Origin: Octopus vulgaris
Lineage: Eukaryota
Direction: 5' to 3'
DNA: 64,000 bases
Assembly: GCA_951406725.2 (NCBI GenBank)
Contig: OX597825.1
Location: forward strand, 16,802,001-16,866,000
The stretch's first letter is position 1. Every line of letters begins with the position of its first letter. Shown in pieces: positions 6,584 to 45,591 of this stretch. Position numbers and translations under genes: made by a program. The notes below the pieces were generated by a model. The model saw nothing but the letters and a program-made list of their open reading frames with translations. It was not told where the DNA came from and did not search any database.

Positions 6584-6625
<42 letters not shown>

Positions 6626-6785
6626 CACACACACACACATATATATATATACATAAATATACGTAGGCAGTTATATGCATGTATGTCTGTAAATATGTAT
6701 ATATAAATATGTGTGTGTATGTCTCTACATATGGGTGTGTGTATACATCCACATATATTACGCCTACATATACGTTCTAACAATG

Positions 6786-6799
<14 letters not shown>

Positions 6800-7139: not shown

Positions 7140-7142
<3 letters not shown>

Positions 7143-7480
7143 GGCGCATGGCTCAGTGGTTAGAGCGTCGAGCTTACGATCGTGAGGTTGTGAGCTCGAA
7201 TCCCGGACCGGGCTGCGTGTTGTGTTCTCGAGCAAGGCACTTTTCACGTTGCTCCAGTTCACTCAGCTGTAGAAATGAGTTGCGACGTCACTGGTGCCAA
7301 GCTGTATCGACCTTTGTCTTTCCCTTAGATAACACTGGTGGCGTGGAGAGGGGAGGCTGGTATGCATGGGCGACTGCTGGCCTTCCATAAAAACAACCTT
7401 GCCCAGACTTGTGTCTAGGAGGGTAACTTTCTAGGTGCAATCCCATGGTCATTCATGACCGAAGGGGGTCTTTACCCTTT
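7140..7480 (+). mobile_element. tRNA-derived SINE inserted in a (TA)n tract
   Basis: GGCGCATGGCTCAGTGGTTAGAGCG (A box), GAGCTCGAATCCC (B box), non-tRNA body, (TA)n on both sides. Confidence 0.85.
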
Positions 7481-7979
7481 ATATATATATATATATATAT
7501 ATACCGGTCTCACGCCATTTCCGCTCCACCGGTCACTCCTTGCAACACCTATCTGTGTTCGGTTTGTCCTTACACAGAGGCCATCCGGATTCCCGTTTGC
7601 GCCGTGAACAGGAATTAATCTTCTCTCTTCGCTCTTATACGCCATTTGGTCTCAACTCTCCCCCCTCCTCATCTAACCCCCTCTCCCCCCTCCTCACCTA
7701 TCCTTTCTCCCCCCGACCCCTACTTCTTCAGTCCTTCATCCTTTCACCCCTACTCCCCTTCCCTTCTTCCCTCTTTCTCCCTCCCTCTTCCCTTCCCTCT
7801 GCTCCCTCACTCCCTCTCTCTCCCCTCTCCCTCTTTCCTCCTTCATCCCCCCTCCCCTTCCTTCTCCCCATCCTCTCCCTCTCCCCCTTCTCCTCCCCCT
7901 CTTCTTCCCCTCCTCTTCTCTCCCCCTCTTCTTCTCCTCACTACACCACATGACTTTACACATCACATCACATGATGTG

Positions 7980-8320
7980 CCATACTAATACACACACCAA
8001 CTAATATATACTAATACGTACTAATACATACTAGTACATACTAATACTTACACCAACCCTATACATACACACGTCCAGACCCCGCATACGCACTTATACT
8101 CTCTCACACACACACACACACACCTATACATACCAATACGTACTAATACATACTAATACATACTAATACATACACCAACCCCATACATACGCACGTCCAG
8201 ACCAATCTTATGCACTAATACTCTCTCATACACACACACACACACACACACACACCCTTATACATACTAATACATACACCAACCCTATACATACATACAT
8301 CCAGACCCCTCCCACGCACT
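7980..8320 (+). repeat. (TACTAATACA)n decamers and three ~110-120 bp subrepeats inside the pLTR (also ~12478-12815)
   Basis: Repeated TACTAATACA; CACCAACCC.ATACATAC...TCCAGACC occurs three times. Confidence 0.8.
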
Positions 8321-8489
8321 TTTAGCTGGTCCCTCAACCCATTTATCAACCCTATTATCTCCCCTTATTTCGCTCTCGCGTCTCATGTTTGATCTTTGAC
8401 CTCTGGCCGAAATCAGATCGCCATGTTGATTCGTTAGCTACTGCACGCATTTTTTTCTCTCCTTCTTTCTGTGTTTTTCTCTCTGTGTA

Positions 8490-8527
8490 TCTTTCTGTTG
8501 AAGAGCGTAGGCTCGAAACGTTAAAGA
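8490..8527 (+). ncRNA. Minimal type I hammerhead ribozyme, variant core
   Basis: TCTTT-CTGTTGA-A-GAGC(GTAG)GCTC-GAAA-CG-TT-AAAGA: stem I TCTTT/AAAGA, stem II GAGC/GCTC, palindromic AACGTT stem III. Confidence 0.75.
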
Positions 8528-9259
8528 CTTGTTTTATTTATATTTCCTGAGCGCCATACTAATACAATTGTTCGTTTGTTTTCCACCTGCCTTCGTCTTT
8601 TGTTTATTTTCATAAAGCTTCCCGTTATATATTACGCGCTCACGTGGTCTCACTTTCATCCTATATTCTACCAATACCACTATCAACACTTACCTCTACC
8701 TTGGATTTTCTTTACCTCTTGGATACTTACCATTGGCTGCACCTCTCTTTCGCGCATCAAAGTGACTTTGCATTGATGTGAAATCCTTAAAAAATATACC
8801 ACGACGTCTACACATTTCTCACCTTGAACTTTCAACCTTGAACTTGTTCGCATAAACTGTCCCGTTTGTTGTATTTTTATTTCTTCTTATATTACCACTT
8901 TTTTTACATTCATTTCATGCTTCCCACATTTTCCTGAATTTTTGTTCTTCTTTCCGTCTTTCTTCCCTCTCTGGATGTCCATACTCCGTTTCCTCTGCCT
9001 GCACCCCCCTTTTTTTGCCTCCCCCTCTCTCTGCTTCCCTTCTTTCTTTCCCTTTTCCGTTTGCCCCGTCTTTTCTGCCCCTATCGCTTACTTATCTAGT
9101 TTTTTCATACGATTATTTTATTTTTTTTGTTTTTTTGAACGTTTGTTTTTTCCCCTTTTTTCTCTATTTTTTTTCATACGACAATTTTTGTTTTTTGTTT
9201 TTTTTGTTTTTTCGAACGTTTTTTTTTTTTTTTTTTTTTTTTTTTTTCGCTATCCCATC

Positions 9260-12200
9260 ATGCCGGATCCTAGGTCCTACCTCCTCACCCTCCATCACCG
9301 TTTGAAGGATCATCTACGTTCGCTTCCTGTATTTTGCCTTCAGCCGTCCGTTAATCTCTCTCTACTTCTTTTTAAAAAAACCCGCTTCTCTAGCCATGTC
9401 TCTTTCCTAAGCCGCTGCCTACATCACCGACTCATCCCTAAAGGTTTCCGCCTCCACTTCCACCCTGCTCTCCACTCGGATTCTTCCATCTTACCCATAC
9501 TCCGCACCACATCTTACCGCCTTATGCGGGCCACCATTCGCTCTAATCTCTCCAAACTACATGCCATCAACCGCCTTCTTCCTCCTGCTTTCTCCACCTT
9601 CTTCTCCTCTCTGCCGCCTCTCTATGCTCCAAACACGCTACGCTTCATTATCCATTTGAATCAACTCTTCCATCAATTTCTTTCTGATACCAAACTTCGT
9701 AAACTCCAATCACTCTTCCATTCCACCCTACCCGACGCCACTACCCCAACTCCTCCACCACCCTTCTCCCCTCCCGATAGGCTCCATCCACCCACACCTA
9801 ACCCCACTGCCCCTCCCTACAACCCCTTCTCCCCTCCCGTTAGGCTCCATCCACCCACACCTAACCCTACTGCCCCGCCCAACCACCCCCCACACACCTC
9901 TCCAATCCCTCCCCCTCAGACCTCCACGAGACCTACCACCCCTCCTACTTCTATTCCATCCACCCCTTCTCCACTTCCGTCTGTTGTTACCATTCCCCCC
10001 GATCTTCCCCTCTCTGCGGCTGAACGCTCCGTCCTTGGTAGGGGTCTGCGTTTCATCCCCCTCACTCCATCCTGTAAGGAATTCCAGACGCGAGTTGATG
10101 TCCACAGCTTTGTGCGCCGGGTCCGGTTGGGTGCGCATTACCACGACTCGCCACCCACACCCCACGAAGAGGACGACGGCTTCACTGGCCTGGGCCGCCG
10201 ACCATCCCCGTGGACGCCTGCCCCTGGCCAGATCCTAGCAGTGGATCTTTTCGCGGGCGCTTGTCAGCGTGCATTGGAGCGGTTCAACTTCTCCAGGCGC
10301 CAACGCCGCCTCAACATCTCCCCGGCTGAGCTCTTGGCTCTTCGTTCCCTCCAACGGCGCGCTGACATTATCATCAAACCGGCTGACAAGGGTGGAGCTG
10401 TAGTGGTGTGGCGCGCGGACCTCTATAGGGCCGAGGCTTTCCGCCAACTCAATGACACCTCCTTCTATTCCCCTCTGCCCTCTAACCCCACACGTAGCTA
10501 CCAACAGACGGTATCCTCTACTGTCCAAGACCTCATCTCGTCCTCCCGTCTCCCCCGCACCGCATCCAACCTAATTGTGCGAACCCCACGTACCCCCACC
10601 ATTTACTTCCTCCCCAAAATCCACAAACCCAACAACCCTGGCCGCCCCATCGTCTCCGCCTGTAACTGCCCCACGGAGCTCATCTCTAAATACCTCGACC
10701 GTGTCCTTGCCCCCCTAGTAGCATCTCTTCCCTCCCACATCCACGATACCAACCATGCTCTCCGGCTTTTCAACTCTTTCTCCTTTCCTCCCGGCTCCTC
10801 CAAAATCCTTTTTACTATGGACATCCAAAGCCTCTATACTGTTATCCCTCCACCACGAAGGACTGCAGGCCCTTCGACACTTTCTTGACCTCCGCTCTAA
10901 CCCTGTACCTGACACCTCCACACTCATTCGTCTGGCCGAACTTGTCCTTACTCTGAACTGCTTCTCGTTCGCGGGCGAGTTCTACCATCAGGTCTCGGGA
11001 GTGGCCATGGGAACGCGAATGGGCCCCAACTATGCGAACCTGTTCGTTGGCTATGTTGAGGCCCAAATATTCTCTAATTTCACTGGTCCCACTCCTGAAC
11101 TATATGGTCGTTATATTGACGACATTATCGGTGCCACCTCACTCTCCCGCGAACATCTAGATTCCTTCCTCTCTTTCGTCCAATCTTTCCATCCAGCCCT
11201 CCACTTCACTTCCACTATCTCCAACACCTCTGTCTCCTTCCTCGACATTTCGGTTAGCATTCTTCACTCCACTCTTACCACCTCCATTCACTACAAACAC
11301 ACAGACTCACACTCATACCTCAACTTCTCTTCCTCCCACCCAGAACACACCAAGCTTTCCATCCCCTATTCCCAATTCCTCCGTCTACGTAGGCTCTGTA
11401 GTGACGACCATGACTTTGAGACTCAGTCTCAACGTATGGCTCACCACTTCACCCTACGTGGATACCCCCTCACCACTATCCACACCGCCCTTGCCAGAGC
11501 ACGGTCCGTGGACCGTGTATCTGCTCTCTCTCCCCGAACCCGCCCTGTAGTCTCCCGCCTCCCTTTTCCCCTCACTTACCACCCCACGACCCTACGTCTC
11601 CAACGCACCATTCTTCGAGCTTTCCGTCATCTCCAGTCCGACCCGTCCACTTCACACCTCTTCCCTAACCGACCCCTCCCCTCTTTCAAACGAGCCCACA
11701 ACCTTCGAGACCTTTTGGTCCATAGCTCCTTCCCTGACCCTACCTCCCAACCCGGCTCGTTCCCCTGCTCCCGCCCACGTTGCCGCACTTGCCCTTACCT
11801 CTCCAACACCACCCGCCTCACTAGCACCCACCATCGACCCTATCCCATCATCCACTCCTTCACCTGCACCTCCAGCAATATTATCTATTGCATCTCTTGC
11901 TCTCTCTGCAATTCCTTGTACATCGGACAAACGGGACGCCGCTTGGCTGACCGGTTCGCGGAACACCTTCGTGACATTCACCTTGCGAACGACACACCGG
12001 TCTCACGCCATTTCCGCTCCACCGGTCACTCCTTGCAACACCTATCTGTGTTCGGTTTGTCCTTACACAGAGGCCATCCGGATTCCCGTTTGCGCCGTGA
12101 ACAGGAATTAATCTTCTCTCTTCGCTCTTATACGCCATTTGGTCTCAACTCTCCCCCCTCCTCATCTAACCCCCTCTCCCCCTCCTCACCTATCCTTTCT

Positions 12201-12485
12201 CCCCCCGACCCCTACTTCTTCAGTCCTTCATCCTTTCACCCCTACTCCCCTTCCCTTCTTCCCTCTTTCTCCCTCCCTCTTCCCCTTCCCTCTGCTCCCT
12301 CACTCCCTCTCTCTCTCCCCCCCTCTCCCTCTTTCCTCCTTCATCCCCCTATCCCCTTCCTTCTCCCCATCCTCTCCTCTCCCCCTTCTCCTCCCCCTCT
12401 TCTTCCCCTCCCTTCTCTCCCCCTCTTCTTCTCCTCACTACACCACATGACTTTACACATCACATCACATGATGTGCCATACTAA
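9260..12485 (+). CDS. PLE polyprotein (reverse transcriptase + GIY-YIG endonuclease) with one +1 frameshift at ~10850
   Basis: ATG 9260 (MPDPRS); FLSRC..LIPKG; IKPADKGGAVVVW; YFLPKIHK..GRPIVS; MDIQSLYTVIP|HEGL; GVAMGTRMGPNYANLF; RYIDD; CSRPRCRTC linker; IIYCISCSLCNSLYIGQTGRRLADRFAEH; PFGLN. Joins track ORFs 8942..10888 and 10755..12485. Confidence 0.92.
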
Positions 12486-13129
12486 TACACACACCAACTA
12501 ATACATACTAATACGTACTAATACATACTAGTACATACTAATACTTACACCAACCCTATACATACACACGTCCAGACCCCGCATACGCACTTATACTCTC
12601 TCACACACACACACACACCTATACATACCAATACGTACTAATACATACTAATACATACTAATACATACACCAACCCCATACATACGCACGTCCAGACCAA
12701 TCTTACGCACTAATACTCTCTCATACACACACACACACACACACACACACCCTTATACATACTAATACATACACCAACCCTATACATACATACATCCAGA
12801 CCCCTCCCACGCACTTTTAGCTGGTCCCTCAACCCATTTATCAACCCTATTATCTCCCCTTATTTCGCTCTCGCGTCTCATGTTTGATCTTTGACCTCTG
12901 GCCGAAATCAGATCGCCATGTTGATTCGTTAGCTACTGCACGCATTTTTTTCTCTCCTTCTTTCTGTGTTTTTCTCTCTCTGTGTATCTTTCTGTTGAAG
13001 AGCGTAGGCTCGAAACGTTAAAGACTTGTTTTATTTATATTTCCTGAGCGCCATACTAATACAATTGTTCGTTTGTTTTCCACCTGCCTTCGTCTTTTGT
13101 TTATTTTCATAAAGCTTCCCGTTATATAT
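11996..13129 (+). repeat. 3' pseudo-LTR region
   Basis: Direct repeat of 7503-8632. Confidence 0.93.
12987..13024 (+). ncRNA. Minimal type I hammerhead ribozyme, variant core (second copy)
   Basis: Identical to 8490-8527. Confidence 0.75.
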
Positions 13130-13979
13130 ATACAGACATTGTTAGAACGTATATGTAGGCGTAATATATGTGGATGTATACACACACCCATATGTAGAGA
13201 TATACACACACATATTTATATATACATATTTACAGACATACATGCATATAACTGCGTACGTATATTTATGGATATATACATATATATATATATGTGTGTG
13301 TGTGTGTGTACGTACACACACACACAAACACACTCCAACAACTCCACTAACACACACAGACACACGCATACACGCTTGTCCACAAACACACAAACACACA
13401 CACACCTACATCTCGTATCTGTACACCGGTGCCAATTTTGTATTAGTCTGAAAACAAGAAATGTAAATTGATACGAAATGTGATTTAGAATTATTGTATT
13501 TATTTTGTCCTATGTTGTTTCTTCTGACCTACATTGAAAATATCCATATCTCTCTCCAAAATTACCTTCAAAGTAAAATAGAAACAAAAGCGGAATGAAA
13601 AAGAGAAATAACTGGTTGGGAATCAAATCTTTGAGTCATAAAAATTCTTCAACGTTTTTTCTGCGCTCCTTCATTTTTGCTTATAGTAGAATATTTGGAC
13701 GTTTATTCACAGGCTATTTTCACTCATTTTGTTTCTTTCATGTTTTCAAGCTGCATGTTCTCAATTCTAATGTCTCTGCAAGCACATTGCAATTCCTTTG
13801 AGGGACCGTAATGTGTTTGGGACATTTATATTTGCAAAAGTTGTCTTAGATATTAAATCTGTTCTTAAAATTCCACTTTTAAATATCATATCTTCAAAAT
13901 GTCTGTCGTCGATTTCAAATAACATGAATAAGGGAAAAGAATGTATTTAATTATTTGAAATTTAATTCGTGCATATTTT

Positions 13980-43233: not shown

Positions 43234-44166
43234 ATGTATACAGTTAAGCTGTCAGATACACACTCACACACTTGTATATAAATATATACATGCATACTCC
43301 CATATGTTATGTCGAAATCAGTGACTTCGGTCAATGGAAACTCTTTATGTACTTATTCCCAAAGAATATCGCCCAGAAAAGAAAAGAAATTGCTATTGAT
43401 ACGTACATTTTAAAAAGATGATGGTAAATGTAAATGCGAAGGGGTGCCTCGTTTCCTGACGGTCGGAGCAGTAAACAATAAAATTTATATCATATTCCAT
43501 CCGTCGGATTAACTTAGGTGCAGTATGGTTGCAAATGAGACTGTGATTAGCTATGGCAGGTCATCGAACTATCAAGAGAACTGAGGTAGATCTTTGAAAT
43601 GAACCAAGTATTCTACAGTGTCTATAAACATGCAAAGAATATCCCTGTAAAGCTTAAATTTAAATCACGAAGAAAGATACGGTTGCAAATTACCTATCTA
43701 TTCAAGAATGTCATGGGGTCTTCTTTTTGGCTTCATATGTCTCCTGGCATAGATATCGAAGTCCATCTAATTCATTCCTTTATCTCTGTCTCTCTGTCTC
43801 TCTTTTCTTCTAGATGCCTTCAGCTGGGAAGTAATATTACCGGTAAAGGCATGCAGTTGCGTTATACTCTATGATCAATAACTGATAAGGAATTAGAGAC
43901 CTTCTGCGCCTGGTTTCTCTTCATCTGTGCATTTAATACATGTTTTTTAACTTACGACTCTATGACTGTTTTCCGTTTGTGCATTTACTGTACATCTTCT
44001 CCCTTATCAACTAACGGAACGCAACGTACTTTGGTTTATATATATATATATATAGAAATTCGGGGTGAGTACTTGGTAATTATAAGCACCTGTGTATACC
44101 GTTTGGTGGTATAGGTGGTGGAGTAAATTAATCAAAATAAAATAAAAACATGATGCGAAGGATTCA

Positions 44167-44244
44167 GCGGTACATATGTTTCGGGCCTTTATTAGACAGA
44201 TTTATAACAATGCATAATGTGTGTCTGTGGCCTTCTTCAGCCGC
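44167..44244 (-). ncRNA. Type I hammerhead ribozyme with long stem II
   Basis: Reverse complement of 45427-45504. Confidence 0.8.
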
Positions 44245-45426
44245 GCACAACAGCTTCCACAAGGACATGTGTTACATCAAAAATTCTTGGTTGGGGATGC
44301 AAATCCTCTCATTCGCGTACGACATAATGCGGCAGCAGCATAGAATTGAAGCGTCCATCTCTTTCTTCTCTCAATGTAGAATGAGGAAAACTGGATGTTG
44401 AGGTAATGTAAATAAATAAATACATATATAGGCGTGAGGATGGAGGGGCGAGAATTCGGGACCAGGGATAAAAAATGTATAAAAGGTGTAAGTATAGAAA
44501 AATATAAAAATGTAGAGCATAAAGATATAAAGAGTTATAAGGAGATGTAAAGGGGGTATAAAGAATATAAAGAAATGTAAAGAAATATAAATAAATGTAA
44601 AGGCATAAGGTTATAAAGTAAAAATAGAAATAGAAATAAAAGTAAAAAAACATGATAAAAACATGATAAAAATGTAAAAGAATGTAAAGATAAGGGATGT
44701 ATAGAGGTTACGGACCAAGCATGGTGGTCAGGAGATTGATAAAATTTAGTTGTAGACTTGGAGGCGTATATGTACGCGTGTATGTGGGTGTATATATCCA
44801 TGATGATATGTATGTACTAGAAGTCCATTTAATTCAAGAAACCAGATTAAATGCTCATCAACTCTGATTTACAACACATTAGGTCCCCAGAGGAAACTGT
44901 TGATTTACTGACAATTCTACAACTAAATTTTATCAATCTCCTGACCACCATGCTTGGTCCGTAACCTCTATACATCCCTTATCTTTACATTCTTTTACAT
45001 TTTTATCATGTTTTTATCATGTTTTTTTACTTTTATTTCTATTTCTATTTTTACTTTATAACCTTATGCCTTTACATTTATTTATATTTCTTTACATTTC
45101 TTTATATTCTTTATACTCCTTTACATCTCCTTATAACTCTTTATATCTTTATGCTCTACATTTTTATATTTTTCTATACTTACACCTTTTATACATTTTT
45201 TATCCCTGGTCCCGAATTCTCGCCCCTCCATCCTCACGCCTATATATGTATTTATTTATTTACATTACCTCAACATCCAGTTTTCCTCATTCTACATTGA
45301 GAGAAGAAAGAGATGGACGCTTCAATTCTATGCTGCTGCCGCATTATGTCGTACGCGAATGAGAGGATTTGCATCCCCAACCAAGAATTTTTGATGTAAC
45401 ACATGTCCTTGTGGAAGCTGTTGTGC

Positions 45427-45504
45427 GCGGCTGAAGAAGGCCACAGACACACATTATGCATTGTTATAAATCTGTCTAATAAAGGCCCGAAACATATGTA
45501 CCGC
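45427..45504 (+). ncRNA. Type I hammerhead ribozyme with long stem II
   Basis: GCGG-CTGAAGA-AGGCC-(~40 nt)-AGGCCC-GAAA-CATATG-TA-CCGC; canonical core, GUA cleavage triplet. Confidence 0.8.
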
Positions 45505-45542
45505 TGAATCCTTCGCATCATGTTTTTATTTTATTTTGATCA

Positions 45543-45591
<49 letters not shown>

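Follow-up and report, generated by a model that had tools for sequence, protein, structure and literature searches.

The window, i.e., the whole stretch of 64,000 nucleotides of Octopus vulgaris DNA analysed here, contains a Penelope-like retroelement with two pseudo-LTRs (pLTRs), each of which carries one hammerhead motif in the sense orientation relative to the RT-GIY-YIG open reading frame (Table 1). The 5′ pLTR is preceded by a (TA)n run and consists of the end of the endonuclease region, the 3′ UTR, the hammerhead and a tail; it differs from the 3′ pLTR by 3 substitutions and 15 gap positions. The alignment of the family ended at 13129-13132 in all 20 of the 20 fetched regions, about 110 nt past the predicted cut, and loose ends at the matching place, 8632, continued into TA repeats. 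Thus, the partial-tandem pLTR structure with a tail and the insertion into a microsatellite were both found for this element, in a microsatellite-rich genome of 2.8 Gb.

Table 1. Features of the Penelope-like element and of its two hammerhead motifs, in window coordinates
Feature	Position	Strand	Remark
5′ pseudo-LTR, partial tandem copy	7503..8635	+	98.4% identical to 11996-13133
Minimal type I hammerhead, copy 1	8490..8527	+	sequence, folding
Copy 1, stem I	8490-8494/8523-8527	+	
Copy 1, core	8495-8501	+	extra A at 8502
Core position 6, U for A	8498	+	pairs with A15.1 (8518) in the predicted monomer
Copy 1, stem II	8503-8506/8511-8514	+	
Copy 1, GAAACGUU	8515-8522	+	
Predicted cleavage site, after GUU, copy 1	8522/8523	+	hammerhead numbering applied to the sequence
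Penelope-like ORF: RT (DKG, YIDD), CX4CxxC linker, GIY-YIG	9260..12485	+	frame shifts near 10850
3′ pseudo-LTR	11996..13133	+	
Minimal type I hammerhead, copy 2	12987..13024	+	identical to copy 1
Predicted cleavage site, copy 2	13019/13020	+	hammerhead numbering applied to the sequence
Tail beyond the predicted cut, ~110 nt	13020..13133	+	family copies terminate there, in (TA)n

A first-pass annotation of the window had called the element near-intact, which stands except that the ORF of the window copy is split over two frames near 10850. A copy elsewhere in the genome (L120; 97% identical) has an open frame of 1059 aa with DKG, YIDD, CX4CxxC and GIY-YIG, in which Pfam reported RVT_1 at 454-643 (E 1.4e-7, above the cut-off) and GIY-YIG at 874-907 (E 0.006, below the cut-off). 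The two window frames, which have low-complexity ends, gave no Pfam match at 0.001 and weak matches after trimming. Of 7,987 candidates scored against the RT region of L120, 971 were homologues at E values of 1e-30 or lower; their Pfam set was identical, and those with names came from shark, anemone, urchin, snails and tick. The linker between the RT and the endonuclease is CSRPRCRTC, at 836. According to Craig 2021, the Neptune and Nematis clades are defined by a CX2-5CxxC linker at this place; because such a linker is present, that definition, taken alone, puts the element with Neptune or Nematis, the two not being told apart.

The surroundings of the insertion showed an additional feature. 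The 3′ flank of the element (13123-13314) has an inverted copy with 94% identity at 6612-6799, i.e., ~700 nt before the element begins. Over the 66 nt that adjoin the junction, the identity was 100%, and this stretch was absent from the other loci compared; the target may have been duplicated in inverted orientation in connection with the insertion. The sequence between this copy and the element (~7140-7470) has what we take to be a resemblance to the head of a tRNA-derived SINE.

The 38-mers in the two pLTRs are identical, and each is a minimal type I hammerhead with a CUGUUGA core, stems I and II, GAAA and a GUU triplet, as the first-pass annotation had described. Stem I is UCUUU/AAAGA (5 bp); the core, C3 U4 G5 U6 U7 G8 A9, is followed by one extra A; stem II is GAGC/GCUC (4 bp), closed by loop II GUAG; and the 3′ half reads G12 A13 A14 A15.1 C15.2 G16.2 U16.1 U17. 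Compared to the canonical core, C3 U4 G5 A6 N7 G8 A9, the only mismatch is U at position 6, and all remaining letters agree. A6 is counted among the invariant bases of the hammerhead core. G12 A13 A14, the A15.1-U16.1 pair and an H17 nucleotide (GAAAC GUU) are present and retained across subfamilies. In addition, the motifs have the features of Penelope minimal hammerheads, namely the lack of helix III, the ACGU palindrome, the extra A and the G8503-C8514 pair. The palindromic AACGTT proposed earlier as stem III does exist, but the part able to form helix III in a dimer is ACGU (15.1-16.1); the outer A14 and U17 lie outside an active helix III, and U17 is A in most subfamilies. The cut had been placed at 8523 and 13020, in agreement with hammerhead numbering. 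When the two strands of the window were scanned loosely for hammerheads, both motifs and one unrelated AT-rich match were returned, and Rfam (E up to 5) reported no hammerhead at the motifs.

Occurrence of the motif was assessed in the whole genome with a degenerate pattern unconstrained at positions 6 and 7. It had 25,333 matches and its reversed control had 0, and thus the motif is not a product of chance. Position 6 was U in 23,910 matches, A in 556 and C or G in 867, counts that are restricted to motifs of this stem II shape and are no census of all genomic hammerheads. A 251-nt query gave 40 scored matches among 72 candidates, from which 30 loci were fetched; CTGTTGA was present in 30/30, and the complete 38-mer was unchanged in 29. 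These data exclude a private mutation of the window copy and bear out, on a larger scale than assumed, the earlier proposal of a family-wide natural variant, U6 being fixed in a whole lineage of subfamilies that standard descriptors miss. Published descriptors, as far as their available text goes, require CUGANGA.

An unrelated family (L170-L199) is also abundant in this genome. It has a canonical core, stem I GACAC/GUGUU and a different stem II, GGCUG/CAGCC, with 3,819 exact-pattern matches; A6 was found in 98 of the 100 matches listed, implying that U6 belongs to one lineage and not to the genome. For the same reason, a candidate independent second U6 family with this stem II was rejected, since U6 was sporadic in it. 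The motif was also found in contig sets under four organism labels (X1, X2, X16 and X19), possibly close relatives. In sets X2 and X16, position 8498 was absent among T-to-A places at 3% or more, i.e., A6 accounted for <3%. At one site (L047/L048; G000:C1:1878305 and 1878452), two U6 motifs occurred head to head, about 150 nt apart. Such an inverted head-to-head arrangement is known for Penelope-like elements.

The 556 A6 matches, many of which have compatible stem I arms, could suggest that U6 copies serve as substrates only and are cut in trans by the rarer A6 copies through the shared palindrome and stem I. This is very improbable: for a substrate, GUH and the 3′ arm would suffice, but conservation in U6 copies extends to the 5′ core and to stem II, and the A6 copies are either sporadic revertants or members of the oldest, 15%-diverged family.

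At least five U6 subfamilies were distinguished by their flanks; they diverge from their respective majority sequences by 0.2, 6.6, 8.4, 10 and 10% (30, 23, 13, 7 and 20 loci, respectively; the middle three include loci picked for A6, C6 or G6, and in the oldest set 10/30 loci did not match the motif and were omitted). The window subfamily is young, because its loci are only 0.2% from the majority. In the oldest U6 subfamily, position 6 was U in 82, C in 10, A in 7 and G in 1 (hand count, 100 listed of 909). An older and more distant A6 sister family, represented by 11 loci (L061, L065, L070, L072, L081, L082, L084-L087 and L089) about 15% from their own majority, had A6 in 11/11 and GUUU or GUCU as loop II. 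One stem I pair was C-G in the U6 lineage (24/30) and G-C (10/11) or A-U (1/11) in the A6 sister. With regard to covariation in the stems, which the first-pass annotation had raised, stem I therefore provides one compensatory pair, and stem II provides none because it is invariant.

Given this A6 sister family and the A6 rule in all 56 published representatives, the simplest reading would be that one A-to-U change preceded the oldest U6 wave; it is based on a majority comparison and on a tree of flanking sequences that are short and rich in gaps, the root being placed at the midpoint. A path from A6 through C6 to U6, suggested by a tree of A6- and C6-enriched loci, was unsupported, as the spectrum of the oldest U6 subfamily is what decay would give. 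If an octopus calibration (PMC13282606), in which a distance of 0.09 equals 25 million years, fits this host, the A6-to-U6 change would be approximately 25-30 million years old.

N7 and H17 are the positions left free by hammerhead chemistry. When majorities of the five U6 subfamilies were compared, 27/79 tail columns varied vs 2/28 motif columns, which were N7 and H17 themselves (Fisher p 0.006); with these two excluded, 0/26 motif columns varied (p 0.0002), and both p values are guides, as changes in different alignment columns cannot be treated as independent along a tree. The chance that both variable sites would be N7 and H17 was 0.003; it rises to 0.056 if the nucleotides of loop II and the extra A are also treated as unconstrained. 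At the subfamily level, position 17 was A or U, never G. The subfamily majorities derive from loci chosen by core-containing patterns, and unbiased support comes from lists in which positions were left free (the first 100 matches of each list, which all lie on the same contig). With core positions 3-9 free, departures by hand count in the first 100 of 17,642 matches were 1 at C3, 3 at U4, 3 at G5, 4 at position 6, 4 at G8 and 0 at A9; N7 was U in 43, A in 25, C in 22 and G in 10. With 11.3-17 free, position 17 was A in 76, U in 22 and G in 2 (hand count, first 100 of 20,297), and the other positions had scattered departures of 9 or fewer each, the highest (8-9) at CpG sites. No alternative subfamily state of stem II and loop II was seen among the 100 matches listed of 21,901. 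The unrelated A6 family had the same profile, with N7 variable and the rest scattered.

The fact that the subfamilies differ within the motif only at N7 and H17, together with the compensatory pair of the A6 sister, implies that the fold has been under selection after the loss of A6; judged from these alignments, a hammerhead-shaped constraint is what persisted in this lineage over several waves of spread. Selection on the rest of the motif also argues against a decaying relic. The idea that the ribozyme died with A6U and that its decay is still to come has the expected harm of A6U as its sole point, and it is largely refuted by the comparison of the 26 motif columns with the tail, which leaves it the least probable of the alternatives considered here.

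Loop II (GUAG) and the extra A were unchanged across U6 subfamilies as well. Catalysis does not fix these nucleotides, and thus a part of the constraint appears to be non-catalytic. A further reading is that U6 is compensated, e.g., through the extra A or a contact between loop II and the extended stem I, such that the dimer would cut as efficiently as those of canonical minimal hammerheads. The fixation of GUAG in all U6 subfamilies, with GUUU or GUCU in the A6 sister family, and the long persistence of the lineage in 24,000 copies are in line with compensation. However, GUAG is also present in older A6 copies of the lineage, and position-6 changes in the literature reduce activity, making this reading improbable. 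We also considered that U6 might belong to a 3′ splice site, given the pyrimidine tract that precedes it, but UAG arises at this place only in the A7 subfamily; no GT-AG joints over 8290-9400 were listed in four contig sets, a result that falls short of an exclusion.

Folding provided another view of position 6. The monomer is predicted to contain a U6-A15.1 pair, which adds to U4.G16.2 and G5-C15.2 to give a complete helix, here also with U7-A14; the fold has -10.2 kcal/mol and a z of -2.2. This rod helix was present in the minimum-energy fold of 23/23 distinct natural U6 motifs, 2/14 A6 motifs, 4/12 C6 motifs and 0/2 G6 motifs. The closed monomer compares with -7.8 kcal/mol for the open monomer and -7.7 kcal/mol for the half-dimer three-way junction, energies that ignore tertiary contacts. 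According to these predictions, U6 closes the monomer into a hairpin. Weaker rods were likewise predicted for canonical A6 motifs of the unrelated family; hence, the rod is not unique to U6, and what U6 is predicted to add is a stronger off-state only.

Both full-length copies, the one in the window and L120, extend through both motifs. Since copies end about 110 nt past the cut, their template must have been uncut or re-ligated RNA. A pattern for tails without the letters before the cut had 38 places, of which 30 were inspected: 21 retain the core upstream with small indels, 1 has an internal deletion and 1 starts 10 nt earlier. The remaining 7/30 start within ~1 nt of the cut, vs roughly 8-40 expected from ordinary truncation, a rough expectation that uses 6/30 loci as the denominator and a rate of ~12/89 from 15 rows. 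Copies beginning at the cut were therefore rejected as a cleavage footprint, there being no excess over ordinary truncation. Routine cutting is disfavoured both by this lack of a pile-up and by the copies that extend through both motifs.

A comparable case is the hammerhead of the Poseidon element of the lizard Anolis carolinensis, which, as described by Frangieh 2024 (PMC11167929), cuts only with the element's protein and whose cutting is dispensable for insertion in vitro. The octopus element shares with Poseidon, as it is described there, a pLTR hammerhead upstream of an internal start of reverse transcription, a tail past the cut and copies that are not bounded by the cut. Unlike Poseidon, which has a canonical core and an ORF starting inside the motif, the octopus element has its ORF ~740 nt downstream; the clade also differs, the octopus ORF having the CX4CxxC linker of Neptune/Nematis. 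Because the lizard element with its canonical core shows the same copy structure, genomic copies neither prove nor exclude cutting. Naiad elements are reported, in the text available, to have spread without canonical hammerheads.

These observations raise the possibility that the motif does not cut at all, its sequence and shape being kept for binding by the element's protein or a host factor, for loading of the RNA and positioning of reverse transcription; U6 would then have been fixed since it blocks a template-destroying cut. Loop II and the extra A being as fixed as the core, the predicted closure of the core into a hairpin by U6, the copies that span both motifs instead of starting at the cut, and the normal in vitro insertion reported for cleavage-dead mutants of the related element (PMC11167929) all favour such a function. 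On the other hand, the sole sites that changed between subfamilies are those freed by hammerhead chemistry, with A or U and not G at position 17, whereas a mere binding site need not obey the N7/H17 rule, and N7 varies although U7 would strengthen the rod. We regard a non-cutting function as possible and as the stronger among the rivals, and still as rather unlikely.

Minimal type I hammerheads in pLTRs of metazoan Penelope-like elements were reported by Cervera and De la Pena 2014 (PMC4209133), who found that they cleave weakly and only as dimers. In the parts of that paper available, 56/56 aligned representatives and the consensus CUGANGAH have A6, and the only core variant named is U3-A8. 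The octopus motifs share with those described there their presence in both pLTRs on the sense strand, a short stem I, an extra base between A9 and stem II, G10.1-C11.1, a palindromic 15.2-16.2, the lack of helix III, a U-rich upstream sequence and thousands of dispersed copies; they differ from these A6 motifs in that U6 is the norm of the octopus lineage. A natural change of position 6 with the remaining core intact is also known from the phage Bcep176, an A6C hammerhead that cuts slowly, with a kobs under 0.1/min (Perreault 2011, PMC3088659). By contrast with that single, assayed phage sequence with C, the octopus motif has U in a retroelement lineage of 24,000 copies and is read from sequence. 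A6C is rescued by Mn2+, reaching 0.31/min in 1 mM Mn2+, and in one fast hammerhead it caused a ~10^5-fold loss in 0.3 mM Mg2+, according to Naghdi 2020 (PMC7151607). In a deep mutational scan (PMC9901934), single and double mutants of the CUGA region had, in the text available, low activity except for the C3/G8 swap. As published position-6 changes lower activity, a U6 hammerhead should be slow at best, and A6U together with the missing helix III and the competing helix may mean no cutting at all.

Short-stem-III, dimer-cleaving minimal hammerheads of Penelope-like retrotransposons were reportedly also described by Lunse, Weinberg and Breaker in 2017. A natural A6U hammerhead was not found in the available text of the hammerhead-variant and hammerhead-Penelope literature, which excludes Lunse 2017, the largest variant survey, where one may be contained.

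Taken together, we favour, with a probability of about 0.55, that the U6 motif is an attenuated hammerhead that would cut only as a dimer or with the help of a protein or a metal, its cleavage being predicted. In the proposed sequence of events, A6 changed to U in a Neptune/Nematis-type lineage; U6 is fixed there, and the other core and stem positions are conserved between subfamilies apart from N7 and H17. A lone motif is predicted by folding to be shut as a closed rod via U6-A15.1. Two motifs of a tandem transcript could swap strands through the ACGU palindrome and form helix III, which would draw A15.1 off U6 and release the core; alternatively, the element's protein may refold the motif. 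The lost A6 contacts would slow cutting, probably to such an extent that full templates remain. Slow cutting would suit the element, whose reverse transcriptase begins ~110 nt past the site and has to read through a motif that is either uncut or cut and re-ligated. In a more specific and tentative form of the attenuated-hammerhead reading, one that we hold possible but doubtful, A6U would be a selected built-in switch, shut by pairing with A15.1 and firing on dimerisation, binding of the element's protein or Mn2+, i.e., the mark of a conditionally active U6 class. If so, a switch-like class that escapes every CUGANGA descriptor has carried a dominant lineage of retroelements over tens of millions of years.

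The role of Penelope hammerheads has been called a mystery (PMC7761336). The U6 lineage provides a natural experiment on this question, in which selection on the fold continues despite a substitution that would be expected to impair cleavage severely. Cutting by the U6 motif would mean that the hammerhead core tolerates more than is taught and is perhaps switch-like; if the motif does not cut, such motifs are kept for something besides cleavage. Genome screens demand A6 and therefore overlook this class, which has ~24,000 copies in a single genome.

Two further observations were made in the course of this analysis. A short motif, CTGTTGAG-GTAGCGAACCAC-GAAACGTA, with no clear stem I recurs at five places, one of them L152. 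In addition, the window contains a perfect 430-nt inverted repeat (44124-44553 and 45118-45547, with 564 nt between the arms), which could represent a second young element or stem from the assembly.
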